This document shows, piece after piece, positions 3,688 to 58,206 of a stretch of 64,000 nt of DNA (positions within the stretch are counted from its first letter, which is position 1; the number at the start of each line of letters is the position of its first letter). This DNA comes from Minisyncoccia bacterium (GTDB taxonomy: Bacteria > Patescibacteriota > Minisyncoccia > Phycocordibacterales > CAJBRS01): NCBI GenBank assembly GCA_038215155.1, contig JBBQRF010000001.1, forward strand, positions 54,042 to 118,041, read 5' to 3'. The notes beneath the pieces were generated by a model, which saw nothing but the letters and a program-made list of their open reading frames with translations, searched no databases and was not told the origin of the DNA. Both the position numbers and the translations under genes were made by a program.

Positions 3688-5028
3688 ATGAAATCTTATT
3701 TACATTCATTGGGCAAGTGGCCGATCTGGCATAATTACAGTCCTACAGAATGGGTCTTAATAAGTGTCGGCGCACTTGCATTATTTTATATTGCTCTAAA
3801 TTTTTTTACATCTTTTGGAGATCAGACTCCTCCTCCTAAAATTGACTCTTCTGTCAGCTTAAATGATATCGGCCAATTTGAGGAAACTTTAGCGCATGCT
3901 GTAAATTCCAATATTTATGATATGCCTTCCGATTCGGTAAAAATATTAACTAATGGTGGTGAATTCCTGCCCGACTTATTGTCTGAAATCCAAACGGCAA
4001 AAAGTTCAATTTCAATCACCGATTATATTTGGGACGGTGGCAGTTTCGGCAACACATTATTTGAAGCATTAATTAAGAAAGCTCAGGAAGGGGTAGAGGT
4101 CAAAGTGCTGGTTGACGGGACTGGTGGGCATAAGGCAGATACAGACCTAATTAAAAAACTAGAACAGGCCGGAGGCAAGTTCGCTCGATTTCGTCCTGTC
4201 AGGTGGTGGAATTTAAATCGTATTGATCGCCGAACCCATGTACGAGATTTTGTCATTGATAATAAAACTGCCTATGTGGGAGGCATTGCTATTTCCGATT
4301 TATGGCTTGGAGATGCCACCACTTCCAAATCTTGGCATGATTTTATGTTTAAGTCGGGTGGATTATTAGCAGATCAATCCGCCAAGATTTTTAATGTAAT
4401 GTGGAGCAACACTACTGGAGAAATTTTACAAACATCATCCAACACAGAACTTGGTGGGAAACTAGCTCCAAAAGGCTCTAGTTTTGTCCCACTATTCAGT
4501 GTCCCCTCACCTGATATGTCTCACAATATGGAACATTTCATTTGGCTTTCAATGGGTGCAGCTGACCACTCCATCCATATTGAAAATCCATATCTTGTGC
4601 CGAGTAAATCTTTGCTTCAGATGCTGGAAAATAAAGCTCGAGAAGGTGTGGACGTAAAAATTATTGTCCCGGGGAAAAACACCGATGCTAAATACACTAG
4701 GTGGGCTACCCAGTCTTTCTACTCAGAGTTATTAAAGGCGGGGGTAAGAATTTTTGAATACCAACCTTCCCGTATACATGCCAAAATTATGGTGTTTGAT
4801 AATAAATGGAGCATTGTAGGGTCAGCTAACCTAGACAATCGTTCCAGTCAGATTAACCTAGAGTATGTAGTAGGTATTGCAGATCCTAAATTTGCCACTA
4901 ATTTAGAAGATAAGTTTCAAGAGGATTTAACCAAGACCAAAGAGATTACCAAGGAGAATTGGAAAGGTACCTCAACATTCAAACTTCCTTTTGAATTAGT
5001 TTCTAAAATATTTATTAAGCAATACTAA
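3688..5028 (+). CDS. cls: cardiolipin synthase / phospholipase D family protein
   Basis: 446 aa; N-terminal TM helix; two HKD motifs, HVRDFVIDNKTAYVGGIAISD and HAKIMVFDNKWSIVGSANLDNRS. Confidence 0.85.
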   Translation: MKSYLHSLGKWPIWHNYSPTEWVLISVGALALFYIALNFFTSFGDQTPPPKIDSSVSLNDIGQFEETLAHAVNSNIYDMPSDSVKILTNGGEFLPDLLSEIQTAKSSISITDYIWDGGSFGNTLFEALIKKAQEGVEVKVLVDGTGGHKADTDLIKKLEQAGGKFARFRPVRWWNLNRIDRRTHVRDFVIDNKTAYVGGIAISDLWLGDATTSKSWHDFMFKSGGLLADQSAKIFNVMWSNTTGEILQTSSNTELGGKLAPKGSSFVPLFSVPSPDMSHNMEHFIWLSMGAADHSIHIENPYLVPSKSLLQMLENKAREGVDVKIIVPGKNTDAKYTRWATQSFYSELLKAGVRIFEYQPSRIHAKIMVFDNKWSIVGSANLDNRSSQINLEYVVGIADPKFATNLEDKFQEDLTKTKEITKENWKGTSTFKLPFELVSKIFIKQY

Positions 5029-8017: not shown

Positions 8018-8587
8018 TTAGTATTTTCTAATGACTGCCCGGACGATTGCCGCAATTCTCATTTGATACTGGGGATAAATATTTGAATATTTCTTATTGG
8101 CTGGCTCGAGATAGGCCTGTCCACCCTTATCGTAGCGTAGGTATTTCATTGTCCATCCTCCATCGACTTCAGCAATGACGATATCGCCTGCTTTAGCCGT
8201 ACCTTTTCGATCCACTAGGACCATGTCCCCTTCTTCAATGTGAGCTTCAATCATGGAGTCACCTTTTACCTCTAAAAGATAGGAAGAATCTTTATTTTCC
8301 ACTAAAAAATCTTCTAAATTCAAAGTATTATCCTTGATCTCATCAGCTGTCTCGGGAATACCGGCTTCCACTACTCCTAATAAAGGAATTTCATTAAAGA
8401 TGTTGTTGAGAGTAATTCTCCCCATCGCATCCTTGTTCAAAACCTCTTCTTCTACCAGGCGATTAATTAATTTAAAAACAGCATTCTTAGATTTGAAGCC
8501 GAGAAGATTCATAATCTCTTTATAGCCTGGCAAGCGGCCGTGTTTTTGATAGAAAGCGACAATTTTATCTTTGTATTCTATTTTCAT
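8018..8587 (-). CDS. lexA: LexA repressor (S24 peptidase)
   Basis: 189 aa; N-terminal wHTH; C-terminal GDSM (Ser nucleophile) and downstream Lys dyad; cleavage-site-like VEAG region. Confidence 0.9.
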   Translation of the reverse strand: MKIEYKDKIVAFYQKHGRLPGYKEIMNLLGFKSKNAVFKLINRLVEEEVLNKDAMGRITLNNIFNEIPLLGVVEAGIPETADEIKDNTLNLEDFLVENKDSSYLLEVKGDSMIEAHIEEGDMVLVDRKGTAKAGDIVIAEVDGGWTMKYLRYDKGGQAYLEPANKKYSNIYPQYQMRIAAIVRAVIRKY

Positions 8588-8861: not shown

Positions 8862-8894
8862 AGCAAAAGGTCCTGCGCAAGCGCAGGACCTTTG
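8862..8894 (-). terminator. rho-independent terminator after the 8911..9249 gene
   Basis: ggtcctgcgc / gcgcaggacc perfect stem; T-rich tail on the minus strand (ttttgctttttc). Confidence 0.6.
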
Positions 8895-9493: not shown

Positions 9494-11321
9494 TGACAAA
9501 GACATTATACCAAAGGGCGAGAAGGTAGAGAACGTATATTTTCCTAGAATTATCCGCTTTTTTGTTAAGGTGATTTTCGGAAAGCTGGCGAATATATTTC
9601 AGACTAAATTTAGTTGAAATATATTCATTTTCGACAATTGTACTTAAAATTTCCTTGGCCGTAGTTTCATTTTGGAGCCAGTTGCGGATTGGTGTTGGGA
9701 AGCCGAGTTTTTTGCGGCCTGCTGTCTCCTTGGGCAGGATGCTTTCAAATGCCTTGCGCAAAATGTATTTGGTTTGACCATTTTTGTATTTCAATTCTTC
9801 AGGAATGCGTCCGGATATTTTAGCAATTTCAATGTCAAGAAAAGGCACACGTAGCTCCAGTGAATTAGCCATTGTCATCTTATCTGCTTTGGCCAAGATG
9901 TCGCCTGGCAGCCAAGTATTTATATCGATGAATTGCATTTTGGCAGAATCGAGCTGAATTTTCACTTGATCATAGACGGGGTTTAGATCTAGTTTCTCGT
10001 TAGGATTGGCTTTCCATAGTTCGGCAATTTCTTCAGGGTGAAAGATGTAAGCATTGCCAATGTAGCGTTCTCGGATAGGAATGAGAACGCGATTCAAATA
10101 ATTTTTGCCGTAGAAATTCAAAGGTAGATGAGCAAAAAAGTGGATGAGTGATTTGGGTAGCCATTTTAATTTATTAAGGGCAAATGGTTCGCGATAAATA
10201 TTGTAGCCGCCAAATAGTTCATCACTTCCCTCGCCCGAAAGCACCACCTTGACGTGCTTTCGGGCTTCTCTAGCCAAGAAGTAAAGCGCCACCGCTGAGG
10301 GGTCGGCGACCGGCTCGTCGAAATGCCATACCACTTTAGGCATTTCTTGGAAATATTCTTCTGGCGAAATATTAATTTCAGTGTGATCAGTACCTAGAAG
10401 ATCGGCCATTATTTTAGCTTCACTCTGCTCGCTGACTTCTTCAAATCCAATGGTGAATGTTTTGAGATTTCCGCCTTGCTCTTTGCGAACTTTACTCATC
10501 ATGGCAACAATGATGGCGCTATCAATACCGCCAGACAGAAAGGCACCCACGGGAACATCAGCAATCATATGAGCCCGTACTGAGTTTTCAATTCCTTCTT
10601 GAATTTCCTTTTTTAGTAGGATCTCATCAATATTTTTTTCCCGAAACTGATAACCCCAATATTTCTCCTCTTTAATACTTTGGTCGGCTAAATTGATCTT
10701 TAAAAAGTGACCGGGTAAAAGTTTGTGAATATTGCGAAAAAAAGTTTCTTTTAAAGGATTGTATTGGTAAGAAAGATAGTTATAGATGGCGCGCTCATTT
10801 AATTCCGGTTTAAAATCTGGATGAAGGAGCAGGCACTTCATCTCTGAAGCAAATCCTTTCAACTTCCAATCGTCAAAATAATAATAAAGTGGCTTAATAC
10901 CGAAATAATCTCGCGCGACGAACATCTCGTCGCGCCCTAAATCATAAATAGCAAAAGTGAACATTCCTCGAAGTCGGAGTAGCATTTCTTCGCCGTGTTG
11001 CTCATATAAGTGAATTAGAGTTTCAGTATCGCTTTCTGTTGTAAGAGTGTGTCCTTGCAGTATTAATTCTTCTCGAAGTTCCCGATAATTGTAGATCTCA
11101 CCATTAAATACAATACAAATAGTTTTATTTTCATTCCAGATCGGTTGATCGCCAGTGGAAAGATCTATAATGCTCAAGCGCCGCATACCGATAGAAGCTT
11201 TCGGGCCATCAAAAAAACCATCATCGTCAGGCCCGCGATGATGAATTCTCTCAACCATTTCTCTAATTATCTTTTCTTTGTTTGGAGTGTTTGCTCCGAC
11301 GATTCCAGCAATGCCGCACAT
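9474..11321 (-). CDS. asnB: asparagine synthase (glutamine-hydrolysing)
   Basis: 615 aa; N-terminal MCGIAGI (Cys2 nucleophile of an Ntn amidotransferase); SGGIDSA PP-loop. Confidence 0.92.
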   Translation of the reverse strand: MCGIAGIVGANTPNKEKIIREMVERIHHRGPDDDGFFDGPKASIGMRRLSIIDLSTGDQPIWNENKTICIVFNGEIYNYRELREELILQGHTLTTESDTETLIHLYEQHGEEMLLRLRGMFTFAIYDLGRDEMFVARDYFGIKPLYYYFDDWKLKGFASEMKCLLLHPDFKPELNERAIYNYLSYQYNPLKETFFRNIHKLLPGHFLKINLADQSIKEEKYWGYQFREKNIDEILLKKEIQEGIENSVRAHMIADVPVGAFLSGGIDSAIIVAMMSKVRKEQGGNLKTFTIGFEEVSEQSEAKIMADLLGTDHTEINISPEEYFQEMPKVVWHFDEPVADPSAVALYFLAREARKHVKVVLSGEGSDELFGGYNIYREPFALNKLKWLPKSLIHFFAHLPLNFYGKNYLNRVLIPIRERYIGNAYIFHPEEIAELWKANPNEKLDLNPVYDQVKIQLDSAKMQFIDINTWLPGDILAKADKMTMANSLELRVPFLDIEIAKISGRIPEELKYKNGQTKYILRKAFESILPKETAGRKKLGFPTPIRNWLQNETTAKEILSTIVENEYISTKFSLKYIRQLSENHLNKKADNSRKIYVLYLLALWYNVFVNEKTTK

Positions 11322-12650: not shown

Positions 12651-13992
12651 TATCAATTCTGCGCAAAGTTTCTTCTTTCCCAAAAATTTCAGCAAGTGTG
12701 AATGGGTCAGGTGATTTCTCTTGTCCGGAAAGACAGTAGCGCATAGCCCATAGTACCAGACCTCTACCCTTTTCTTCTGCATACGGCCAAACGGCCTCCT
12801 TTATGTTTAGCTGATTAAAAGGCTCTGAAAGTGGCTCTAAAAGGGCTTTTAGACGGCCTAAAATGGGCTTTAAAGCTTCTAAAGTGACTTCCTGACCCTT
12901 TCTTTGTTTGGGCGGGCACAGAAGATTTTCGGCTGAATATTTGGGATCACTAAAAAAGTATTTGAACTCTGTCTGCGCCATCTCAGTGACCTCGCCAAAG
13001 GTGGAAAGCCGTTCTCGAAGGAGAGGCAAAATTTTCGGTAGCATTAGAGAAAATTTTGCTGAATTCTTAATATCTTCCGGTAAAAATTCTATTACTTTAT
13101 CTTTAAATTCCTCATCCGACAGGAGTCTCATATGTTCCTTATTAATCCATTTTAATTTAACCATATCAAAAATAGCTCCACTTTTTTGTACTCGATCCAG
13201 ACTGAATTCTCCAATCAATTCTTCCATAGAAAATATTTCCTGTTCAGTCCCTGGATTCCATCCTAACAGAGCAAGATAATTAATCAGTGCTTGAGGCAAG
13301 AAGCCTTGGTCTCGATAATCAAATACACTAACAGCGCCATGACGTCCGGAAAATTTAGATCGGTCTGCCGCTAAAATCATTGGGAAGTGCGCATAAATCG
13401 GTCTTGGCGCACTAATTGCCTCCTGGATCAAGATTTGGCGTGGAGTATTGGAAATATGATCTTCCCCTCGCAATACATGCGTAATGCCCATTTCAAAATC
13501 ATCTACCACTACAGTTAGATGATAGAGCGGGTCATCAATACCGCGAGCTATGACAAAGTCTTTCAATTCAGTTGTGTCGAACTCAACTTCTCCTCGAATC
13601 AGATCTAAGAATTTTATTTTTTTATTAGGATTACGAAAACGAACTACCTCTTTCATTTCCCCGGAGGCGTCTTTCGCCGGCTCCGGGGAAATGTACGCCA
13701 CTCCACCCTCAATCATTTTTTGCAAATATTTTTTATACTCACCCGTTCTTTCCGATTGCCGGAACGGCCCTTGATCATATGAAATCCCGAGCCACTTTAA
13801 ACTTTCGATGATAACATCTTCGAACTCCTTTTTAGATCGCTCTTTGTCAGTATCTTCCAACCGAAAAACCATCTCTCCGCCATTCTTGCGAGTAAATAAA
13901 AAATTAAAGAGTGCCGTGCGAGCCCGACCAATATGAAGAAAGCCAGTCGGGCTCGGCGGGAAGCGAGTTATTATTTTTGGTTCATCGCTCAT
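12631..13992 (-). CDS. gltX: glutamyl-tRNA synthetase
   Basis: About 453 aa from ATG 13992 (MSDEPKIITRFPPSPTGFLHIGRARTALFNF, HIGH motif); KMSKS-like RHGAVS region. The track's longer N-terminal extension overlaps murG and is rejected. Confidence 0.9.
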   Translation of the reverse strand: MSDEPKIITRFPPSPTGFLHIGRARTALFNFLFTRKNGGEMVFRLEDTDKERSKKEFEDVIIESLKWLGISYDQGPFRQSERTGEYKKYLQKMIEGGVAYISPEPAKDASGEMKEVVRFRNPNKKIKFLDLIRGEVEFDTTELKDFVIARGIDDPLYHLTVVVDDFEMGITHVLRGEDHISNTPRQILIQEAISAPRPIYAHFPMILAADRSKFSGRHGAVSVFDYRDQGFLPQALINYLALLGWNPGTEQEIFSMEELIGEFSLDRVQKSGAIFDMVKLKWINKEHMRLLSDEEFKDKVIEFLPEDIKNSAKFSLMLPKILPLLRERLSTFGEVTEMAQTEFKYFFSDPKYSAENLLCPPKQRKGQEVTLEALKPILGRLKALLEPLSEPFNQLNIKEAVWPYAEEKGRGLVLWAMRYCLSGQEKSPDPFTLAEIFGKEETLRRIDNAIKKI

Positions 13993-19561: not shown

Positions 19562-19579
19562 AAGCTAATTATATAGTAG

Positions 19580-19612
19580 AAATAGGGGCGGGCGAAGCCC
19601 GCCCCTATTTCT
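19580..19612 (-). terminator. rho-independent terminator after ABC exporter gene
   Basis: aggggcgggc-gaag-cccgcccct hairpin immediately after the stop codon at 19612. Confidence 0.6.
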
Positions 19613-25810: not shown

Positions 25811-27409
25811 TTATGCTGCTGGCAGTTCTACCCAAAATGTAGATCCTTTCCCGGTTCCTTCTGATTCTGCCCAAATGCGGCCTTTGTGAGCTTCCACAAT
25901 TTCCTTGGCGATGAAGAGGCCGTAGCCGGTGCTGTTGACGTTGACCTTGGTGGATTCTTTGCCACGACCACCTTCAGTAAAGAGCCGTTTCTTATCTTCT
26001 TCGGTAATGCCCACACCCGTGTCTTTTATACTAAAAAATATTTTCCCATCTTTTTTAGCCAATGAGATTTTCAAGCCACCCTTCAGGGTGTATTTAATAG
26101 AGTTATCAATCAGATTCCCCACGACATGTTGACTGAGTTGATCTCGATCGCCAATGGTGGTGAAATCGACATCTCCCGGAATAATAGTCTCCAATGTCAG
26201 ATTTTTATTTCGAGCCTCCTTTGTGTGTCCCTCAATCTGATCAACGACTACTTTTCGGAAATCAAAAGACTCTCGTTTATATGTAACTGTTCCCTTCTTT
26301 AAGTTAGCGGCGCTTAAGATACTCATTACTGTCTCTACTCCCTCCTGATTATCTCTAAGCCCTTCTTTGGCGACAGATTTAATAGAATCAGGAGTCTCAC
26401 CAAAATCCCCTTCAAGTATTCCAGCAAAAGCAGCCTTACTCTTGGTCAAGTATCCCTTGATTTGATGGCTGACGAAATGAATCAGACCTTCCTGGCGGTC
26501 ATTGGCAAGTTGTAATTCACTGGCCAAATGTTCAATCTTCTCGCGCTGCTCTACCTCGCGCAAAACTCCTCGAATGAGATTGATTCCAAAAATTAAAACT
26601 AAAATAAAAATACTGCTTCGAAATATAATTAATGAAGCAGTATTGGCAAAGATTATTTCGATAAAACTTACGAGAGCTAAGAAAAAAGTAATTATTGCAG
26701 TGCTAACCACTTTTACATTAAATAAATGATGTCGAGCTATGGCATAGGCGGTAAAAAGAACAAATGGAAAAACGAAAAGGGCGCTCAGGGGTATGAACCT
26801 TGTGTTGTTTAATAGCGTAGGAAAAATTAAATTAAAAACAATTATCAAAGTAAACATGATGCTCACGCCCGAAAGCAAAAGAGTAAATTGTTTTCTTTCG
26901 ATTCCGCCTGCTATACCTCTTTTTTTTACCATTAAGAAAATCCCGTTTCCTACTAAAGACACTGCTAATATTACAAACAACAAAATACCGGGTGCTGCTA
27001 TGGGTTGCGACACAGTGCCTAATGGTGCCGCTTTAATACCAGAATAGACAAAAGGAGTCAACGTTAACAAAGCAGTGCCCAAAACAGCGAGCTTTAAATG
27101 TCTTCTATATTTAGAGGTAAATGTAAACGTGGTGTTAGGAAAGACAGACATAAGCTTATAAAAAAAATATGCCTGAAAAATAGCAAAAAATAACACTAAT
27201 TTAATCAGAAACAAGACTAATGAAATATTGGCAACTTGGTAGTTTAAATAACTTACGACTCCCCATAACATAGTGCTAACAGAAAAACCCAAAAAGTATT
27301 TATTTGTGATGCTTTTTGGGTTACTAAAATAAATTACCGAGCCCAAAATTCCCGTACTTGCAACGACAAAACCAACAGACAAAAGATCAAAATTATGGAA
27401 CGAAGACAT
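25811..27409 (-). CDS. sensor histidine kinase with polytopic (about 7 TM) input domain
   Basis: 532 aa; about 300-aa hydrophobic N-terminus with no large periplasmic loop; H-box HFVSHQIKGYL; N-box GNLIDNSIKYT; G1 DTGVGI; G2 GYGLFIAKEIVEAHKG. No response-regulator gene in the window. Confidence 0.85.
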   Translation of the reverse strand: MSSFHNFDLLSVGFVVASTGILGSVIYFSNPKSITNKYFLGFSVSTMLWGVVSYLNYQVANISLVLFLIKLVLFFAIFQAYFFYKLMSVFPNTTFTFTSKYRRHLKLAVLGTALLTLTPFVYSGIKAAPLGTVSQPIAAPGILLFVILAVSLVGNGIFLMVKKRGIAGGIERKQFTLLLSGVSIMFTLIIVFNLIFPTLLNNTRFIPLSALFVFPFVLFTAYAIARHHLFNVKVVSTAIITFFLALVSFIEIIFANTASLIIFRSSIFILVLIFGINLIRGVLREVEQREKIEHLASELQLANDRQEGLIHFVSHQIKGYLTKSKAAFAGILEGDFGETPDSIKSVAKEGLRDNQEGVETVMSILSAANLKKGTVTYKRESFDFRKVVVDQIEGHTKEARNKNLTLETIIPGDVDFTTIGDRDQLSQHVVGNLIDNSIKYTLKGGLKISLAKKDGKIFFSIKDTGVGITEEDKKRLFTEGGRGKESTKVNVNSTGYGLFIAKEIVEAHKGRIWAESEGTGKGSTFWVELPAA

Positions 27410-37421: not shown

Positions 37422-38495
37422 TTATATTCCTTCTTTTTTTAATTCCTCTACTAATTTTCTACTTTCTTTGGAAAGCTTTTTTGGTAAGTCGATTTTGATT
37501 CGAATCATTAAATCACCACGATGATTATGGCGGTCGGTCGGTACGCCTTTACCTTTTACTCTGAGAATCTCGCCAAAAGTAATGCCTGCCGGGATTTTAA
37601 CAGTTACTTTTCCATCCAGTGTTTCAATCAGGTACTCGTTTCCTAAGAGTGAGTCGGTTAATTTAATATTTTGATCCATGTAAAGATTAATTCCCTCTTT
37701 TTTAAAGACAGGGTGGGGACGAACGCGAATTTTAACATAGAGATCTCCAGGGGTGCCATTTCCAATGGCTTCACCTTCACCAGTCATACGGATCATTTCA
37801 CCGTTATTGATGCCGGCGGGAATTCCAATTGGAATTTCTACTTGTTTTCGTTCTACTCCTTCGCCTTTGCAATTCCTACATTTCACTTTAGGTATCTCAC
37901 CTTTGCCATGGCAAGTGGGACAAGTTATGACGCTATTGAAGACACCAAGAAAGGAACGGCGGGATTCATTGACTTGCCCCTGCCCATTGCAGGTAGCGCA
38001 GGTTTCCATACCAGAGCCAGGTTCCCCGCCTGTTCCATGACAAATGCTGCAAGTCGAGGTCTTGGTGAGCAATACCTTTTTCTCAGTGCCAAAGACGGAT
38101 TCGCTGAAAGGAATTTCTAAATCAATGGTGATGTCACGCCCACGGCGGCTTTGCCGCCGTGGGCGCCCTCCACCAAAAAAATCACCGAAAATATCTCCCA
38201 GGTCAAAGTCCTGAAATTGGCTAGGGTCAAAACCCTGACCACTAAAGTCGAAGCCGCCAAAACCTCCCGATTGGCCGGCGCCACCGGCTCCCGCATCTCC
38301 ATACATATCGTATTGAGCGCGCTTTTTATCATCAGAAAGCACGCTGTAAGCTTCACTCGCTTCTTTAAATTTAGCGGCATCACCTCCTCCTTTGTCGGGG
38401 TGATATTTATGAGCGATGGTTCGGAAAGCCTTTTTAATTTCCTCTTTAGTCGCCTTGCGATCTATTCCGAGGATTTTGTAATAGTCTTTAGACAT
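37422..38495 (-). CDS. dnaJ: molecular chaperone DnaJ
   Basis: 357 aa; J-domain with HPD; Gly/Phe-rich region; four CxxCxGxG zinc-finger repeats. Confidence 0.93.
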   Translation of the reverse strand: MSKDYYKILGIDRKATKEEIKKAFRTIAHKYHPDKGGGDAAKFKEASEAYSVLSDDKKRAQYDMYGDAGAGGAGQSGGFGGFDFSGQGFDPSQFQDFDLGDIFGDFFGGGRPRRQSRRGRDITIDLEIPFSESVFGTEKKVLLTKTSTCSICHGTGGEPGSGMETCATCNGQGQVNESRRSFLGVFNSVITCPTCHGKGEIPKVKCRNCKGEGVERKQVEIPIGIPAGINNGEMIRMTGEGEAIGNGTPGDLYVKIRVRPHPVFKKEGINLYMDQNIKLTDSLLGNEYLIETLDGKVTVKIPAGITFGEILRVKGKGVPTDRHNHRGDLMIRIKIDLPKKLSKESRKLVEELKKEGI

Positions 38496-40402
38496 TATTT
38501 CGTCTCAGCATCTCGTACATTTCCGTCGGTAGTTCCATCTGTTCCGCTAGCTTGATCACTTCCTGGCGCTCCGGGCTCTGAATTTGTTCCGGCCTGTTGA
38601 TTGGCTTTATTCATCGCTTTACCAATTTTAGACATTTCCGACGAAAGTTCTTCCGTAGCTTTTTTAACCGCCTCAATATCTGTTCCATCTTTCACTCCTT
38701 TCAAGGCTGTAATTTTAGCTTCAACAGAAGACTTTATATCTACCGGCACTTTCTCTCCTCCATCTTTAAGTGCCTTTTCTGCAGCGTAGAGAAGCTGCTC
38801 AGCGGTATTCTTGACATCGGCTTCCTCCCGCTTCTTTTCATCTTCCACTTTATTGGCCTCAGCATCTTTCTGCATCTTTTCAATCTCATCTTTGGAAAGA
38901 CCGGAGCTTCCTTGAATGGTAATTGATTGCTCTTTTCCGCTTGCCTTGTCTTTGGCTTTGACATTGAGAATTCCGTTAGCGTCGACATCAAAGGAAACTT
39001 CAACCTGAGGCATACCCCGAGGAGCCGGTGGAATGCCATCTAGGATAAAGCGACCAAGAGATTTATTATCTTTCGACATGGCCCGTTCTCCTTGCACTAC
39101 ATGGATTTCGACTGAAGTTTGGTTATCAGCAGCAGTAGAAAAGATTTGTGAACGAGAAGTTGGGATAGTAGTATTTCGGTCAATTAATTTTGTGGCTACA
39201 TTACCCATAGTCTCAATTCCTAGGGAAAGAGGAATGACGTCAAGCAAGAGCAGGTCTTTAACATCTCCGGAAAGTATTCCTCCTTGAATGGCGGCGCCAA
39301 GAGCCACTACCTCGTCGGGATTAACGGTCATGTTTGGATCCTTGCCGAAATATTTTTTGACCTCTTCCTGAATCTTCGGCATGCGTGTCTGACCTCCCAC
39401 CAAAATGATTTCGTTTATTTCTCCAAGTTTGAAAGGTGATGCTTCAAGTGCGCGCTTAGTGATTTGCATGGCACGGTCAATAAATTCAGCGGTGAGCTCT
39501 TCTAACTTTGCCCGAGTCATTTTAATGAGTAGGTGTTTTGGGCCATCGCTGCCAGAAGTAATGAATGGAATGTTAATCTCCGTCTCCACTGCAGTTGAAA
39601 GTTCAATCTTTGCTTTCTCAGCTGCTTCATCCAATCGCTGTTTAGCTAAAGGATCAGTTAATAGATCAATCCCCTGCTCTTTTTTGAATTCATCAGCAAG
39701 CCACTGAATAATCTTCTGATCAATATCTTTTCCCCCGAGATGAGCATCTCCATCAGTGGACTTTACTTCAATGACGTCGCCGCCTACTTCCAGAATAGAT
39801 ATATCGAAAGTCCCACCTCCAAAGTCGAAGACGGCAATTTTTTCGTCCTTTTTTTTCTCAAAACCATAAGCGAGTGCTGCGGCTGTTGGTTCGTTAATAA
39901 TTCTCATTACCTCTAGCCCCGCAATCTTGCCGGCGTCTTTCGTTGCTTGTCGCTGGGAGTCATTAAAGTAGGCCGGCACGGTGATGACGGCTTGGGTAAT
40001 TTTCTCACCTAAACGAGCTTCGGCGTCTGCCTTTAATTTCTGCAGAATCATGGCAGAAATTTCTTCAGGTCTTAAGTATTTATCACCCATTTTTACTTCA
40101 ATTCCACCGCTTGCGCTTTTTTTTGTTTCGAACGGCACTACTTTGGTATCTTTCTGAACGGCTGGCTCATCAAAAGTATGACCAATGAAGCGCTTAATTT
40201 GAAAGATAGTGTTGTGCGGATTAGTGACGGATTGGCGTTTAGCCAAAAGGCCGACTAATTTTTCTTTAGTTTTTGATTCAGCAACAATGGATGGAGTGGT
40301 CCGAGCGCCTTCCGCATTTTCAAGAATTTTTGGGGAGCCTGCCTCCATTACCGCCACGGCAGAATTTGTGGTACCGAGATCGATACCGATAATTTTAGAC
40401 AT
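38495..40402 (-). CDS. dnaK: molecular chaperone DnaK (Hsp70)
   Basis: 635 aa; [22 protein letters not shown], and the other Hsp70 signatures. Confidence 0.96.
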
Positions 40403-40446
40403 AATTTTAAATAGTTAACCTAGTAATCAACTGCTTCCTGCTTTGA

Positions 40447-40809
40447 TTAGGCATTAGGTCCTCTAGTTTTTTGAGTGGAAAAAAATTCTGCTTCTCTAAA
40501 TATATTTAAAAAATATGGAGATGGAACAAGGCGAAGTGTTGAGGTTTGATTAGAAATTGTAGAATTTCCGGCAAGGAGGTAAGTCTTCGCCGAAATATCT
40601 TCCTCGACAATGAGGAAGATATTTCGGCTCTTTAATTCATCTTTCTGGGCGAGGAGAATTTGATACTCCTGTGCTGTCAGGGCCTTTTCTCCGAGAATGG
40701 AGAGCTTTCTGTCCTGATTAAATACAAAAAATGAGGCATGCCATCTACCTTTAGTCCTTGAAACTAAGATGCCCGCTTGCTGATTCTGTTTTTTAATTAA
40801 TTCCAACAT
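40447..40809 (-). CDS. hypothetical ORF between grpE and dnaK (doubtful coding)
   Basis: 120-aa ORF that contains a perfect 17-bp inverted repeat in its middle. No recognisable domain; may instead be a regulatory or UTR region. Confidence 0.25.
   Translation of the reverse strand: MLELIKKQNQQAGILVSRTKGRWHASFFVFNQDRKLSILGEKALTAQEYQILLAQKDELKSRNIFLIVEEDISAKTYLLAGNSTISNQTSTLRLVPSPYFLNIFREAEFFSTQKTRGPNA
40589..40628. promoter_or_regulatory. perfect 17-bp inverted repeat (6-nt loop) upstream of dnaK
   Basis: gccgaaatatcttcctc-gacaat-gaggaagatatttcggc at 40589-40605 / 40612-40628, about 190 bp upstream of the dnaK start. Not followed by a U-run on the minus strand. Confidence 0.5.
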
Positions 40810-40812
40810 GTA

Positions 40813-41376
40813 TTATTCAAAAACTTTGACTAAGGCCGGCCTCAGAACTCTTTCTCTCATTTTATAACCCTTTTGGAGAACTTCGGCAATAGTTTGGCTA
40901 GTAGCGCTCTCATTTAGAGGAACCGAGGCGATGGCCTGATGGAAATTGGGATCAAAAGTATCGCCAATTTCTCCATAAGCTAGAACTCCGCTTCTCGTAA
41001 GAATTGAACGAAGCTGCTGGTCAATTCCCTCCATTCCATTCGCCCATTCCTTTGGGACGCCCTGATCCTCCTTCATCTTACTGATGGCGACATCAAAACT
41101 ATCTAAAACCGGCAGAATTTCCTCAATTAACTTTGCTGAAGCGTACAAGAGATGCTCTGTGTTTCTTTCCTCGTCTCTCTTTCGAGCATTAATGAATTCG
41201 GCCTTGTCTCTTTGCCAATTATCAAGATATTTTTGCTTTTCCGCTACCGCCTCCTTCAATTTCAGACGAAGCTTTTTCACGACATCTTTTCCCACCACTT
41301 CTTCCCCGTCCTCGTTAGTCTCAACGATTTCTTCTTCTACTTCTTCATTGATTGATTTTGTATCTTTATCAGACAT
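40813..41376 (-). CDS. grpE: nucleotide exchange factor GrpE
   Basis: 187 aa; acidic N-terminus, long helix and C-terminal beta-domain pattern typical of GrpE (…LLPVLDSFD…). Confidence 0.85.
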   Translation of the reverse strand: MSDKDTKSINEEVEEEIVETNEDGEEVVGKDVVKKLRLKLKEAVAEKQKYLDNWQRDKAEFINARKRDEERNTEHLLYASAKLIEEILPVLDSFDVAISKMKEDQGVPKEWANGMEGIDQQLRSILTRSGVLAYGEIGDTFDPNFHQAIASVPLNESATSQTIAEVLQKGYKMRERVLRPALVKVFE

Positions 41377-41438
41377 TTTTTTATTGGGCGAAACAAAAGA
41401 ACTTCTTTTGCGAAGCCCTCGAGAAAAATCTATCTTTA

Positions 41439-41846
41439 CTATCTCTTACTCCACTGCGGAGCCTTGCGAGCTTTCTTCAAGCCGAACTTACGTCTTTCTT
41501 TACTTCGGGGATCTCTTTTCAAATAACCCTCTTTTTTTAAAGTAGTTCTGAGTTCTTTATCATATTCTATGAGCGCCCGAGATAGGCCATGGCGAAGAGC
41601 ACCTGCCTGAGAACTAATGCCTCCTCCTTTCAGTTTAACAGTAATTTTAAACTTCCCTGTTAAACCTGCTTTATTTAGCGGATTAGTAACCGTCATTCGT
41701 AAAGCAGCGGTTGGAAAATAAGACTCTAAGGCGCGATCATTGACCAGATACGATTGCTTACTCTCTGGAGTAATTCGGACTCGCGCGACGGATGTTTTGC
41801 GGCGACCGACAGCTTCAATATATTTTGTTGTAAGAGTGGTAGACAT
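41439..41846 (-). CDS. rpsI: 30S ribosomal protein S9
   Basis: 135 aa; GGGISSQAGALRHGLSRAL and C-terminal ...KKARKAPQWSKR. Confidence 0.92.
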   Translation of the reverse strand: MSTTLTTKYIEAVGRRKTSVARVRITPESKQSYLVNDRALESYFPTAALRMTVTNPLNKAGLTGKFKITVKLKGGGISSQAGALRHGLSRALIEYDKELRTTLKKEGYLKRDPRSKERRKFGLKKARKAPQWSKR

Positions 41847-48035: not shown

Positions 48036-49805
48036 TTAATCCAAGACGGCCTTGATACGGCGCACTCCAGCAGAAACTGCTTCTTCTTTTATAATTTTAA
48101 AATGGCCAAGAACGCCTGTCTCGTTCACGTGTGGTCCTCCACAAAATTCGCGACTAAAGTAGCCGGTGTTTTCGTTGCCAATAGAATAAACTTTTACCGT
48201 TTGGTCATATTTTTCTCCAAAAGCGTGAACGGCGCCGGTTTTTAAAGCCTCTTCCTTAGACATTTCCGTGAAAGAAACTGGTAAATTGGCTTTTATTTTT
48301 TCGTTTACTAGGTTCTCTATTTTTTGTTTTTGCTCCTCTGTTAGTTTTCCTTGATGAGCAAAATCGAAACGTAATCGTTCGGGAGTAATATTACTTCCCT
48401 TTTGCACTATGCCATTTCCTAGCACTTCTCGGAGAGCGGCGTTTAAAAGATGCGTTGCCGTGTGATATTTTAATGATTTTTCGCTAGTGTCGGCGAGGCC
48501 GCCCTTAAATTTTTGGGCGGCGCCTTGGCGAGAAAGTGCTTGATGTTTTTCTAAGGCACTTTTAAAACCAGCGCTGTCGACTGTTAGACCCTTTTCTTTG
48601 GCTAACTCTTCAATCATCTCTAGCGGAAAACCAAAACTGGAGAAAAGAATAAAAGCTTCTTCTGCGGAGATGTGAGTAGTAGTTAGTTTTTCAAATTCGC
48701 GGAGACCCCTTTCCAGGGTATGACGAAATTTCTGCTCCTCCTTATCAATCTCACTTTTAATTAATTCTGCGACGGCTTTTACTTCAGGATAAATATCTTG
48801 ATACATTTCGATTGCAGTTTGGCTAATCCATAAGAGCGAGCCATGCTTCATGGCGAGTTTGTCCGCCTGAAGCATGGCTCGCCGAATTAATCTTCGTAAA
48901 ACATATCCTCGATCGGTGTTAGAGGGCGTGATTCCGTCAGCGATAATAAAAACTGAAGTGCGCAAATGATCTGCCAATATTCTTTTGGCTCTTTCATTAT
49001 CAAGTGTGGTGAATTCATTAATTTTATTTAAAATCGGAAGAAATAAATCGGTAGCAAAAATATTATCAGTTTTTTGAATGACAGTAGCTAATCGTTCCAG
49101 CCCCGCTCCCGTGTCAACGTTTTGCTGACTAAGCTTCCCTACCACCTTTCCATCCTTTTTTAAAAATTGCATAAAAACGTCATTCCAAACCTCAATGATC
49201 TGTTGATCTTTGTCCGCCTTCTGAAATTCTTCCATAGTTAAAATTCCCAGACCTTTCTCTGAAATATCGTAAAACATTTCCGTGTCAGGACCACACGGAC
49301 CATTATCTCCCACGCTCCACCAGTTTGTTTCAGCGCCCATATAATAAATGCGCTCTGCCGGCACTCCCGTATTCTTCCAAATTTCATATGACTCTGTGTC
49401 TTTGGGGGCATTTTCATCTCCTTCAAAAACGGTTATATAAAGTCTCTCTGGATCGAGTGCTAGTCCTTCTTCCTTTGAAGTGAGAAATTCATAGCTCCAT
49501 TTTATCGCGTCTTCTTTAAAGTAATCTCCAAGAGACCAATTACCGAGCATTTCAAAGAAAGTGTCGTGAGTATTATCTCCTACTTCTTCAATATCCTGAG
49601 TGCGCACACACTTTTGAACATTTACTAAACGCTTACCCCTAGGATGTTTTTCACCTAAAAGATATGGCACTAGAGGCTGCATACCCGCCGTGTTAAAGAG
49701 GACTGTAGGATCATTTTCCGGCACCAAAAGTGCGGAAGGCAATATTTTATGTCCCCGTTTTTCGAAAAATTTTAGGAATCGCTCGCGAATTTCAGTGGAT
49801 GTCAT
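48036..49805 (-). CDS. alaS: alanyl-tRNA synthetase (short form lacking C-terminal C-Ala domain)
   Basis: 589 aa; class-II catalytic core (…FFEKRGHKILPSALLVPENDPTVLFNTAGMQP…); editing-domain HxxxH (HTATHLL) and CxxxH (CGGPHV) motifs. Confidence 0.85.
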   Translation of the reverse strand: MTSTEIRERFLKFFEKRGHKILPSALLVPENDPTVLFNTAGMQPLVPYLLGEKHPRGKRLVNVQKCVRTQDIEEVGDNTHDTFFEMLGNWSLGDYFKEDAIKWSYEFLTSKEEGLALDPERLYITVFEGDENAPKDTESYEIWKNTGVPAERIYYMGAETNWWSVGDNGPCGPDTEMFYDISEKGLGILTMEEFQKADKDQQIIEVWNDVFMQFLKKDGKVVGKLSQQNVDTGAGLERLATVIQKTDNIFATDLFLPILNKINEFTTLDNERAKRILADHLRTSVFIIADGITPSNTDRGYVLRRLIRRAMLQADKLAMKHGSLLWISQTAIEMYQDIYPEVKAVAELIKSEIDKEEQKFRHTLERGLREFEKLTTTHISAEEAFILFSSFGFPLEMIEELAKEKGLTVDSAGFKSALEKHQALSRQGAAQKFKGGLADTSEKSLKYHTATHLLNAALREVLGNGIVQKGSNITPERLRFDFAHQGKLTEEQKQKIENLVNEKIKANLPVSFTEMSKEEALKTGAVHAFGEKYDQTVKVYSIGNENTGYFSREFCGGPHVNETGVLGHFKIIKEEAVSAGVRRIKAVLD

Positions 49806-53916: not shown

Positions 53917-54976
53917 TTATGCCACCCCCGAGACAGGTTTCGCCATCGTAGATCACCAAGGACTGACCACTGGAAAGGCCCTCCTGAGGATTTTTGAATT
54001 TAATGTGAAAATGCTTGTTTTTTTTGCTTAGAAGTAACGGTTGTTTTTCCTGCCGATAGCGAATGCGGCCTAAAAGAGCCGGCTTAGTTGGCTCTTTTAG
54101 GCCGACCCAATTTACTTCTGTTAAATAGCATTCTTTTGCGGCTAGCTTTTCCCTCTTTATCTGCTCCTTATTTGAAACTATCAGAATATTTTTTGCAATA
54201 TCTTTTTTTATGACGTAATAGGGGCTCGAGTGATTGTTTTTCTTTTTAATCTCAAAACCATGTCGTTGACCAATAGTGTAAAAAAAGGCTCCATCATGTT
54301 GACCGATTACTTCTCTTTTCTCATTCATTACTCTCCCCTTTTTTTCCTTGAGGAAGTTTTTTAAAAAAGTCTTCATCTCAACCTTCCCAATAAAACAAAG
54401 ACCTTGGCTGTCTTTTTTATCAAAATTCGGCAAGTCAAATTTTTTAGCCATTTTTCGTACTTCCAACTTCTCAAAATCGCCTACTGGAAATAAAATATGA
54501 TTAAAGTCTTCTTTCTTCAATGACCACAGAAAATAACTTTGATCTTTTGATTTGTCTCGTCCCTCTAGGAGTTTCCCTCCTTGAATACGAGCGTAGTGAC
54601 CGGTGGCAATAAAATCGGCACCTTTTTTACGCGCCCAATCAAAAAAGGCACCAAACTTAATCTCTTTATTACACATTACGTCAGGATTGGGGGTGCGTCC
54701 TTTTTTATATTCCCTGATCATATAATCTACTACTTCTTTTTTGTACTCTCTCTCTAAATCCAAAGTCAAAAATGGAATCTTCAAATGAGCGGCCACTCGC
54801 ATGGCGTCGCGACGGTCTTCTTTCCAAGTACATTCGACAAAATCCGGCTGCCAGACTTTAATAAAAACACCCGTGACGTCATATCCTCCTTTCTTTAATA
54901 GGGCGGCAGAAACAGACGAGTCTACTCCCCCCGACATCCCTACAAAAACTTTTCTTTTAGAGATACTTCTTAACAT
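53894..54976 (-). CDS. mnmA: tRNA 2-thiouridine(34) synthase
   Basis: 360 aa; VFVGMSGGVDSSVSAALL PP-loop; catalytic Cys region (…NPDVMCNKEIKFGAF…). Confidence 0.9.
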   Translation of the reverse strand: MLRSISKRKVFVGMSGGVDSSVSAALLKKGGYDVTGVFIKVWQPDFVECTWKEDRRDAMRVAAHLKIPFLTLDLEREYKKEVVDYMIREYKKGRTPNPDVMCNKEIKFGAFFDWARKKGADFIATGHYARIQGGKLLEGRDKSKDQSYFLWSLKKEDFNHILFPVGDFEKLEVRKMAKKFDLPNFDKKDSQGLCFIGKVEMKTFLKNFLKEKKGRVMNEKREVIGQHDGAFFYTIGQRHGFEIKKKNNHSSPYYVIKKDIAKNILIVSNKEQIKREKLAAKECYLTEVNWVGLKEPTKPALLGRIRYRQEKQPLLLSKKNKHFHIKFKNPQEGLSSGQSLVIYDGETCLGGGIIESANRV

Positions 54977-57177: not shown

Positions 57178-58206
57178 TTAGACCAAGTTGTATTTTCCCT
57201 CCTTGGTTTTCTTAAAGAATTTAGGATTCTGGAGATTGACCATAATGGTATTCTCCTTAACGTATCGCTCCTTCAAAACTTTCTCAATAATTTGCTCGCG
57301 AGTTAGTGGGCCGTTCTTTTCTAAAATCTTTTTAATGACGTCTTTTACTACACCGCTTAAGTACCCCCATTCTGATAGAGCATATAAACCACGGCCGACT
57401 AATACGAAACGTGGATCTTTAATCAATTCATTGTGAGTGGTAGCTACATGAGCTTTTTTGTGGAATAGATCAGTAACAATACGAGCTATTTCTTTAAAGT
57501 GAATTGGGGAGCCGTGTTTTCTCATGGCTAAAAAGGCATAATCACGGATGCCTTTAGTTTTAATGTTTGGAGATGATGCAATTCCCCATTCCTCTAGTGG
57601 ATTTTTTCCAATATTTTTAGAAATACCAAGCCAGCGTCTCAAAATTTCTTCATCCTTATAATGTTCTGAAACATCTTTGACGTGCTCTAAGAAAGAAGCA
57701 ATTAGTTCTGCTTCTGGAATGAGATCTTCATCAGAAAGATTTTTATAAAGCTTTCTCAAGGAGTCGTGGACTTTTTTGGAAAGATCTTCATCAACATACC
57801 AGCGATGCTTGAACTCATCATCCTCTTTGCGGCGCTTAAAAGCATCCCCCACTACCAACATGAAATTAACATGATTTTGAATTGAAGAATCTTTTGACAG
57901 GTTATTTAAAAAATCTTCTTCCGCTACAATGCCGCCCATCTGATGAAGAACGGATTCTAATTCTTCAAAGTCTGCTTTCTCCTCTTTAATGGCGTCCGAT
58001 TTGCGAATATTAATTAATCCAGAATTTTCAATTTGGCGCACCCTCTCTCGAGTAATACCGTAATGTTCGCCGATGGCTTCTAGGGTCATCTTTTCCGGAT
58101 CTTTTCCTAGGCCATAGCGTTTAATAAGCACCTCACGGGCACGTTCAGGCAAGCTCTGAAGCAGGCGTTTGGTGGTCTGTTTCGGCTTGAATTTAAGAAG
58201 ATTCAT
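57178..58206 (-). CDS. sigma-70 region-4-like HTH protein with two HARE-HTH-like C-terminal domains
   Basis: 342 aa; LPERAREVLIKRYGL...TLEAIGEHYGITRERVRQIE is a sigma-70 r4.2 motif; IHFKEIARIVTDL...DPRFVLVGRGLYALSEWGY and a second ...LTREQIIEKVL...FFKKTKEGKYNL match HARE-HTH. Confidence 0.5.
   Translation of the reverse strand: MNLLKFKPKQTTKRLLQSLPERAREVLIKRYGLGKDPEKMTLEAIGEHYGITRERVRQIENSGLINIRKSDAIKEEKADFEELESVLHQMGGIVAEEDFLNNLSKDSSIQNHVNFMLVVGDAFKRRKEDDEFKHRWYVDEDLSKKVHDSLRKLYKNLSDEDLIPEAELIASFLEHVKDVSEHYKDEEILRRWLGISKNIGKNPLEEWGIASSPNIKTKGIRDYAFLAMRKHGSPIHFKEIARIVTDLFHKKAHVATTHNELIKDPRFVLVGRGLYALSEWGYLSGVVKDVIKKILEKNGPLTREQIIEKVLKERYVKENTIMVNLQNPKFFKKTKEGKYNLV

Follow-up and report, generated by a model that had tools for sequence, protein, structure and literature searches.

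Gene X between grpE and dnaK

We analysed a 64-kb stretch of contig JBBQRF010000001.1 from a Minisyncoccia bacterium (hereafter the window), in which a perfect inverted repeat lies between the chaperone genes grpE and dnaK, inside a small gene of an unnamed family that is called gene X below. All genes from rpsI to dnaJ are read from the minus strand, and their order, rpsI-grpE-X-dnaK-dnaJ, is shared by a narrow lineage within the Paceibacterota (Parcubacteria, Candidate Phyla Radiation). Loci of relatives bear handles with the prefix L, L001 being that of the closest relative, at 55% amino-acid identity. The features are given in the direction of transcription.

41439-41846, minus strand: rpsI (ribosomal protein S9), last gene of a ribosomal-protein cluster and directly upstream of grpE; Ribosomal_S9 is syntenic in L001, L004, L008 and L010
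40813-41376, minus strand: grpE (Pfam GrpE, E=4.2e-39), 73% identical to GrpE of L001
40447-40809, minus strand: gene X, 120 aa, unnamed family; its start lies 3 nt past the grpE stop and its stop 44 nt ahead of the dnaK ATG
40612-40628, minus strand: 5' arm of the hairpin (coding strand), nucleotides 182-198 of the coding sequence (CDS), encoding S61 R62 N63 I64 F65 L66, which form strand beta4
40606-40611, minus strand: hairpin loop, ATTGTC on the coding strand, codons I67 V68
40589-40605, minus strand: 3' arm of the hairpin, CDS nucleotides 205-221, encoding E69 E70 D71 I72 S73 A74, the start of a variable, low-confidence linker
40450-40524, minus strand: C-terminal module (V/I)PSPYF...FFSTQKTRGPN(A/K) of X, codons 96-120 at the extreme C-terminus, with invariant residues and synonymous codons
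40403-40446, minus strand: X-dnaK spacer of 44 nt; its hairpin TAATCAA..TTGATTA is weak, and a Shine-Dalgarno-like sequence is lacking
38495-40402, minus strand: dnaK, 87% identical to the HSP70-family protein of L001
37422-38495, minus strand: dnaJ, overlapping the dnaK stop by 1 nt, with its own 13-bp perfect hairpin at 38137-38165 that is not conserved in L001

The original prediction had regarded the 120-aa open reading frame (ORF) as doubtful and its place as a gap in the operon. This view could not be maintained, as the ORF is a genuine conserved gene of an unnamed family that encodes a small cytoplasmic protein. A word-indexed search of 5.8 billion proteins recovered two homologs of X with 55% and 29% identity, both encoded between grpE and dnaK, and pattern scans of genome and metagenome collections contributed three further loci, the homolog identities overall being 55%, 46% and ~30%. 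When 1.84 billion cluster representatives were searched exhaustively with an HMMER profile, 20 proteins reached E<=1e-3, and 12 of these also E<=1e-10. In all eight loci in which both flanks are readable (window, L001, L002, L003, L004, L008, L009 and L010), gene X stands between grpE and dnaK; the L006 locus is too short to show the upstream flank. An alignment of 22 sequences revealed a conserved N-terminus (NQK..IFL), a helix (IT.EQ...L), a strand (NIFIIE), a linker of variable length and a C-terminal consensus IPSPYF...(F/L)(F/L)STQKTRGPN, with S97, P98, Q113, R116 and P118 invariant in all of them. Codons in the tail differ synonymously among the window, L001 and L002 (TCC/TCG/TCA, AGA/CGC/CGA and CCT/CCA/CCA). 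Between the window and L001, the proportion of synonymous differences (pS) in X is 0.75 and thus saturated, that of non-synonymous differences (pN) is 0.32, and pN/pS is ~0.42, while the tail shows a pN of 0.11 versus a pS of 0.64. Protein conservation with synonymous variation, indels that preserve the frame and conserved synteny were all observed for this gene. Neither Pfam nor NCBIfam assigned the ORF to a family, Pfam gave no match for any of the 22 members, and our literature search retrieved no relevant report of a small parcubacterial gene in the grpE-dnaK interval. Source labels of the relatives read Candidatus Paceibacterota or Parcubacteria, and the 90% clusters hold essentially one member each, which indicates a rare lineage. 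Because the gap to grpE is 3 nt, X is probably co-transcribed with grpE and possibly translationally coupled to it. In L010, the two genes overlap by 1 nt, at the grpE stop and the start of X.

In an AlphaFold2 model of X, the N-terminal domain is confident, with a predicted local distance difference test score (pLDDT) of ~90 for residues 10-70 and also for the strand formed by residues 64-69, and pLDDT drops to 56-66 past residue 70, in the linker. In the protein, a compact N-terminal domain of the order beta-beta-beta-alpha-beta is joined through a variable linker to a near-invariant tail (...FFSTQKTRGPN). Two candidate relationships were discarded. A weak profile match to the SepF-like PDB entry 3zig in a comparison with PDB sequences (E = 0.036) was unsupported by fold searches, and X was not placed in that family; an origin as a duplicated fragment of the DnaK nucleotide-binding domain received an hhalign probability of 0.2%.

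The inverted repeat, its conservation and other hairpins

The repeat consists of GCCGAAATATCTTCCTC (40589-40605) and GAGGAAGATATTTCGGC (40612-40628), two arms of 17 nt with 100% complementarity and 6 nt between them, exactly as the original prediction had described, and both simulation and codon resampling confirmed that it is not random. All other perfect hairpins in the window are shorter, and 100 first-order Markov simulations never exceeded 13 bp; when the same peptides were recoded with each genome's codon usage, P(stem>=17) was 2.5e-5 for the window and P(stem>=15) was 2.5e-4 for L001. The stem employs non-preferred codons, namely TCG (9% of Ser) and GCG (14% of Ala) in the 3' arm and TTC (25% of Phe) and ATC (19% of Ile) in the 5' arm. 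The 5' arm encodes the motif SRNIF(L/I), in which SRNIF is invariant in the closest members and which corresponds to NIFII in the family consensus. Read in reverse complement, the beta4 codons (SRNIFL) match exactly those of EEDISA, the six residues with which the linker begins. At 17/17 pairs, a loop of 6 nt and the above probability for the window, the repeat is a perfect reverse-complement copy of adjacent sequence beyond coding constraint, a mark of template switching. Written as a pattern with a variable loop, the palindrome reads CGAAATAT-N(4-30)-ATATTTCG. The original prediction proposed a search for further copies, which returned no second copy of either arm in the window with up to 3 mismatches per arm, nor any further copy of an arm or the core in 11 loci except at the orthologous site. 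A repeated palindromic element, such as the repetitive extragenic palindromic (REP) elements, miniature inverted-repeat transposable elements or Rickettsia palindromic elements, was rejected on this ground, for the 64 kb of the genome that the search covered.

Among the eight other loci with DNA, L001 alone carries a hairpin at this site, and the palindrome is absent in L002, L003, L004, L006, L008, L009 and L010. It had been expected that the palindrome would be conserved without the ORF; the opposite was found, with the ORF kept and the palindrome missing in these seven of eight relatives. The L001 repeat, AGTCGAAATATTTTC-N12-GAAAATATTTCGACT, is perfect over 15 bp and extendable to ~28 pairs. 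Synonymous sites are saturated between the window and L001 in grpE, dnaK, dnaJ and X (pS 0.75-0.83), and the arms of the two repeats differ at four positions only, which make up two C:G-to-T:A double changes that are synonymous in the 5' arm (AGC>AGT, ATC>ATT) and non-synonymous in the 3' arm (A>T, D>N). Such paired lineage differences, with no unpaired one within the shared 14 bp, are a second mark of template switching, albeit at the low statistical power that two carriers afford. The outgroups (L003, L002 and others) have no repeat and, at ~57% nucleotide identity, are too diverged for ancestral sequence reconstruction.

Across 15 orthologous gene pairs, every perfect hairpin with a stem of 9 bp or more was mapped between the window and L001. 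This palindrome was the only one of 10 distinct mapped hairpins to be kept, with 15/17 and 14/15 Watson-Crick pairs, and the nine others keep between 3/10 and 7/9 of their pairs, including the 15-bp hairpin of alaS (7/15) and the 13-bp hairpin of dnaJ (4/13). Since the pairs were kept despite saturated synonymous sites, the changes are paired and the stem exceeds what codon resampling yields, complementarity is maintained at the nucleotide level in both lineages. The claim of a heat-shock control element was therefore upheld in one part, that of a constraint at the level of the nucleic acid (the two compensatory double changes seen with L001); the other part, a control element in a non-coding gap, was not.

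Perfect hairpins are about 10-fold over-represented within the genes of this genome and its relatives. The window contains 22 perfect hairpins (stem >=10, loop <=20) versus 2.1 expected, so that a long palindrome is less singular here than it appears in isolation. Twelve of the 15 top hairpins fall inside ORFs, including alaS, mnmA, gltX, asnB, a class Ib tRNA synthetase, a histidine kinase and dnaJ. Compared with a synonymous-codon shuffle that preserves the proteins, 17 intragenic hairpins were counted versus 1.9 on a longest-ORF heuristic gene map, and 8 versus 0.07 for stems of at least 12 bp; the loci of relatives hold 14 intragenic hairpins versus 1.1 expected. The hairpin sequences in the window are all unrelated, and hence they do not constitute a repeat family. 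Moreover, they are mostly unshared between the window and L011, where the dnaJ and alaS hairpins are missing, which implies a quick turnover. Further hairpins in the window are:

19578-19612: 16-bp hairpin
54066-54104: 15-bp hairpin, mnmA
48836-48882: 15-bp hairpin, alaS
13654-13693: 13-bp hairpin, gltX
8866-8893: 13-bp hairpin
10233-10265 and 9590-9626: 12-bp hairpins, asnB
27286-27322 and 26609-26644: two 11-bp perfect hairpins, histidine-kinase ORF 25811-27409

The spacer between X and dnaK was also found to fold into a hairpin in every family locus, its 5' arm beginning at the last codons or the stop of X. The position of this spacer hairpin is conserved and its sequence is not; it may act as an intercistronic stabiliser or a partial terminator. 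Examples are:

Window 40403-40446: -10.9 kcal/mol, z = -0.9
L003 1094-1223: -56.8 kcal/mol, z = -5.9
L004 3417-3506: z = -3.9
L010 4357-4389: 15 bp perfect, z = -6.3
L001 5354-5407

In addition, L010 has an independent 12-bp perfect palindrome at 4059-4095, GCGAATTTTTCG-N13-CGAAAAATTCGC, inside X at codons 20-32 (strands beta1-beta2). A strong hairpin between the grpE stop and the dnaK start is not a rule of the family, as in sliding-window folding only the window was extreme: a hairpin as strong occurred there in a fraction of 0.03 of the intervals of equal length, versus 0.15-0.92 in the other seven loci.

Origin and possible roles of the hairpin

By our reading, the palindrome serves in none of the three roles put forward in the original prediction, namely as heat-shock operator, RNA thermometer or transcription attenuator. 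As an operator, it would serve a dimeric repressor of a non-HrcA heat-shock regulon at an internal dnaK promoter. Its dyad symmetry upstream of dnaK is in line with this, and no controlling inverted repeat of chaperone expression (CIRCE) or HspR-associated inverted repeat (HAIR) was found near the operon; a Pfam scan of 30 window ORFs likewise gave none of the HrcA, HspR and CtsR families, so that some other control system would be expected. The CIRCE element, TTAGCACTC-N9-GAGTGCTAA, is located in the promoter or 5' region of dnaK or groE operons, and HAIR reads CTTGAGT-N7-ACTCAAG. That no CIRCE had been seen by eye was corroborated near the operon by a scan with up to 3 mismatches, the sole match in 64 kb lying at 27253-27279, and HAIR gave 0 matches in the window with up to 2 mismatches. 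The prediction was likewise correct in that no hrcA is adjacent and that rpsI (41439-41846) lies upstream of grpE; besides, the HrcA family is missing from the precomputed Pfam lists of L011, L008 and L009. Nevertheless, the operator is very improbable. The palindrome is present as a single copy in 64 kb, and in L011 (20 kb around the operon) at the orthologous site only; no sigma-70-like promoter site occurs on the minus, coding strand at 40403-40809, which includes the stretch from the palindrome to dnaK; and the 17-bp perfect arms far exceed half-sites. Moreover, what the paired lineage changes keep is complementarity and not sequence, a hallmark of pairing within one molecule or of copying from arm to arm, and seven of eight relatives with the same operon do without the palindrome.

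An RNA thermometer or attenuator ahead of dnaK is more improbable still. The hairpin does lie upstream of dnaK in a heat-shock operon, and a terminator-like element was called at 40589-40628. However, this call is on the plus, antisense strand only, and no U-tract follows the stem on the coding strand, which reads GAAGACUUACC (continuing GAAGACTTACCTCC); an intrinsic terminator or attenuator was thus rejected for want of a U-run on the transcribed strand. The comparison of folds at 30 and 42 C that the prediction had suggested revealed no melting, with free energies of -33.3 kcal/mol at 30 C, -29.9 at 37 C, -27.3 at 42 C and still -8.1 at 80 C, which speaks against melting at physiological temperatures. 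A distance of 187 nt separates the stem, which lies in a translated ORF, from the dnaK AUG downstream, and the stem touches no ribosome-binding site. Thermometers of the ROSE (repression of heat-shock gene expression) or fourU type were discarded, as the stem is perfect, does not occlude a Shine-Dalgarno sequence or AUG and does not melt between 30 and 42 C; an Rfam scan of 40300-41500 at E<=10 gave no thermometer family, only spurious matches of the miRNA-precursor type to the bare hairpin, far below gathering scores. A programmed -1 frameshift was dismissed as well, no slippery heptamer being visible by eye 5' of the stem in either carrier.

Chance, or an artefact of assembly or amplification, can practically be set aside. 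The genome is metagenome-assembled and foldback chimeras do occur in amplified DNA, but the reading frame is intact and an independent assembly from another sample (Joint Genome Institute Ga0070741_10000041) carries the orthologous palindrome; chance is opposed by a P of ~2.5e-5 given the peptide and by 0/100 simulations above 13 bp.

We favour an inverted repeat that originated by a template switch in a tolerant linker and that has no regulatory role, and assign this reading a probability of roughly 0.55. Template switching creates perfect reverse-complement repeats in one event and repairs mismatched stems, leaving multi-base 'compensatory' patterns (Monttinen & Loytynoja 2022, PMC8794818), and it has hotspots at quasipalindromes in E. 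coli (PMC7202029). The anatomy of the repeat fits such a process, because the source arm is under protein selection, the copy sits in a tolerant linker, the changes split into synonymous and non-synonymous ones and the genome holds many young, unshared hairpins. We infer that the repeat most likely dates back to the ancestor shared by this genome and the nearest relative sampled, where a template switch during replication would have written the reverse complement of the beta4 codons into the linker, which tolerates mutation. The arms would then have co-evolved, synonymous changes in the protein-anchored 5' arm being mirrored as non-synonymous ones in the free 3' arm, and the palindrome is a member of a genome-wide population of over-represented perfect intragenic hairpins. 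Several points weigh against this reading. The palindrome is the sole survivor of 10 distinct hairpins across saturated synonymous sites, and selection on structure would give the same result; with two carriers only, selection and mutational maintenance cannot be separated. To our knowledge, homogenisation by template switching has never been measured in these organisms. The intragenic hairpin counts derive from the longest-ORF heuristic map and not from a gene caller, and the 12-bp intragenic and 15-bp spacer hairpins of L010 could be a sign of a need for RNA structure in the grpE-dnaK interval that has arisen more than once.

The hairpin might alternatively be a functional mRNA element of grpE-X-dnaK-dnaJ in this sub-lineage, setting the relative stability or translation of grpE-X versus dnaK-dnaJ, which we consider at clearly less than even odds. 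It could act as an exonuclease barrier, as a site for a double-strand-specific RNase or as a ribosome pause at the boundary of the domain and linker of X. Its unique persistence among the 10 hairpins in shared genes is the best argument for such an element, which is also favoured by complementarity kept over saturated divergence with two compensatory double changes and against codon preference, by a hairpin strength in the top 3% of equal-length intervals of the window, by the extension of the L001 stem to ~28 pairs, and by the X-dnaK spacer hairpins in all loci together with the intragenic hairpin of L010. On the other hand, the hairpin is missing from seven of eight other family members, the grpE-dnaK interval shows no consistent excess of hairpin strength across loci, and the stem lies within a translated ORF, where ribosomes would unwind it. 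Besides, unshared perfect hairpins abound in unrelated housekeeping genes, so a mutational source is available, and template switching by itself gives compensatory patterns (PMC8794818). A more elaborate proposal holds both that X is a lineage-specific third partner of GrpE/DnaK in a Paceibacterota clade, in which a flexible linker would tether the small beta-beta-beta-alpha-beta domain to an invariant C-terminal docking peptide, PSPYF...FFSTQKTRGPN, that would bind DnaK or GrpE, and that the conserved hairpin at the boundary of domain and linker is a selected mRNA structure tuning the output of X and dnaK in the two carriers; taken as one joint claim, it appears doubtful.

As to the surroundings of the operon, the chaperone genes directly follow the ribosomal-protein/rpoA cluster rpsM-rpsK-rpsD-rpoA-rplQ-rplM-rpsI on the same strand (window 41377-41438; L001, L004, L008 and L010), which suggests that they may be transcribed by read-through from the ribosomal-protein operon. 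The rpsI-grpE gap ranges from 12 nt (L010) to 172 nt (L001), and a weak terminator-like hairpin is located at the rpsI-grpE junction of the window (41420-41397, minus strand). No Shine-Dalgarno-like sequence was seen by eye ahead of dnaK, X or grpE (40403-40420, 40810-40830 and 41377-41395), nor ahead of dnaK in relatives. In relatives, dnaK and dnaJ are split by at least one small opposite-strand ORF with no Pfam match (L001 7329-7538; L002 7382-7717; L008 6466-6876; L009 6436-8033), in contrast to the 1-nt overlap in the window, and this part of the operon architecture is therefore variable. Elsewhere in the window, the CIRCE-like site at 27253-27279, TTACGACTC-N9-TAGTGCTAA, has 3 mismatches (0.01 such sites expected by chance), falls into the N-terminal part of the histidine-kinase ORF 25811-27409 and is probably a chance match. 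The only regulator-like proteins among the 30 ORFs scanned are a 342-aa protein with an N-terminal Sigma70_r4 and a HARE-HTH domain (57178-58206) and a LexA-like Peptidase_S24 protein of 189 aa (8018-8587).

Significance and related systems

The outcome is mostly deflationary, as no new heat-shock operator or thermosensor emerged and the 'gap' in the operon is a gene. While the observation of the palindrome is confirmed, its interpretation is only partly supported: the palindrome is an inverted repeat within a gene, belongs to a mutational kind already known and sits in an unannotated but otherwise ordinary conserved hypothetical gene, and its novelty is modest. It illustrates how reverse-complement copying of the codons of a beta-strand can write an adjacent linker that then persists with paired changes, and it offers a clean natural example for the debate as to whether compensatory changes in a stem prove selection. 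The X family is a concrete candidate for a new accessory factor of the DnaK system, in organisms whose proteostasis is essentially unstudied, and the Candidate Phyla Radiation lineage that bears X appears to lack the usual HrcA/CIRCE control.

The strict grpE-X-dnaK synteny, the near-zero spacing to grpE and the invariant C-terminal peptide on a flexible tether point to a possible role of X in the DnaK cycle. With respect to fold, the closest known systems include the beta-beta-beta-alpha-beta half-domain of RNase H-like proteins and of the ASKHA (acetate and sugar kinases/Hsc70/actin) superfamily, as in Ppx/GppA, sugar kinases and the Hsp70 nucleotide-binding domain. With respect to function, the dafA gene lies in the dnaK operon, where it follows dnaJ, and encodes a protein of ~8 kDa. 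DafA of Thermus thermophilus is a small assembly factor of the DnaK3-DnaJ3-DafA3 complex (PMC3727329). X resembles DafA in being small, lineage-restricted, devoid of wider homologs and tied to the DnaK system, and DafA is the best available functional analogy. The genes differ in position, dafA standing after dnaJ and X between grpE and dnaK, and in size (~78 aa vs 120 aa). The likeness is one of role, with no homology claimed, and the tie of X to the DnaK system is a genomic association.

With CIRCE/HrcA and HAIR/HspR, the palindrome shares a dyad symmetry tied to the dnaK operon, whereas it has no sequence resemblance to these elements, does not lie in the promoter region, has no second site and possesses arms of 17 bp instead of 7-9 bp. 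Stabilising or processing hairpins of polycistronic mRNAs are exemplified by the REP hairpins of enterobacterial operons and by the processing of the Bacillus subtilis dnaK operon. The hairpin in X is similar to these in its very stable stem on the transcribed strand, without a U-tract and between genes needed at different levels (GrpE vs DnaK); theirs, however, are intercistronic, non-coding and repeated or conserved in a group, whereas ours is intragenic, single-copy and found in 2/9 family loci. Mutagenesis at quasipalindromes is suppressed in E. coli by the 3' exonucleases ExoI and ExoVII. Quasipalindromes shaped by template switching have been described in rRNA and other RNA genes and in reporter loci, whereas here the repeat is in-frame in a protein gene and writes six linker residues, and with two carriers only the event is not reconstructable. 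It nevertheless has in common with those systems a nearby perfect reverse-complement copy, multi-base paired differences, a protein-constrained arm as the source, and the company of many unrelated perfect hairpins of fast turnover in the same genome.

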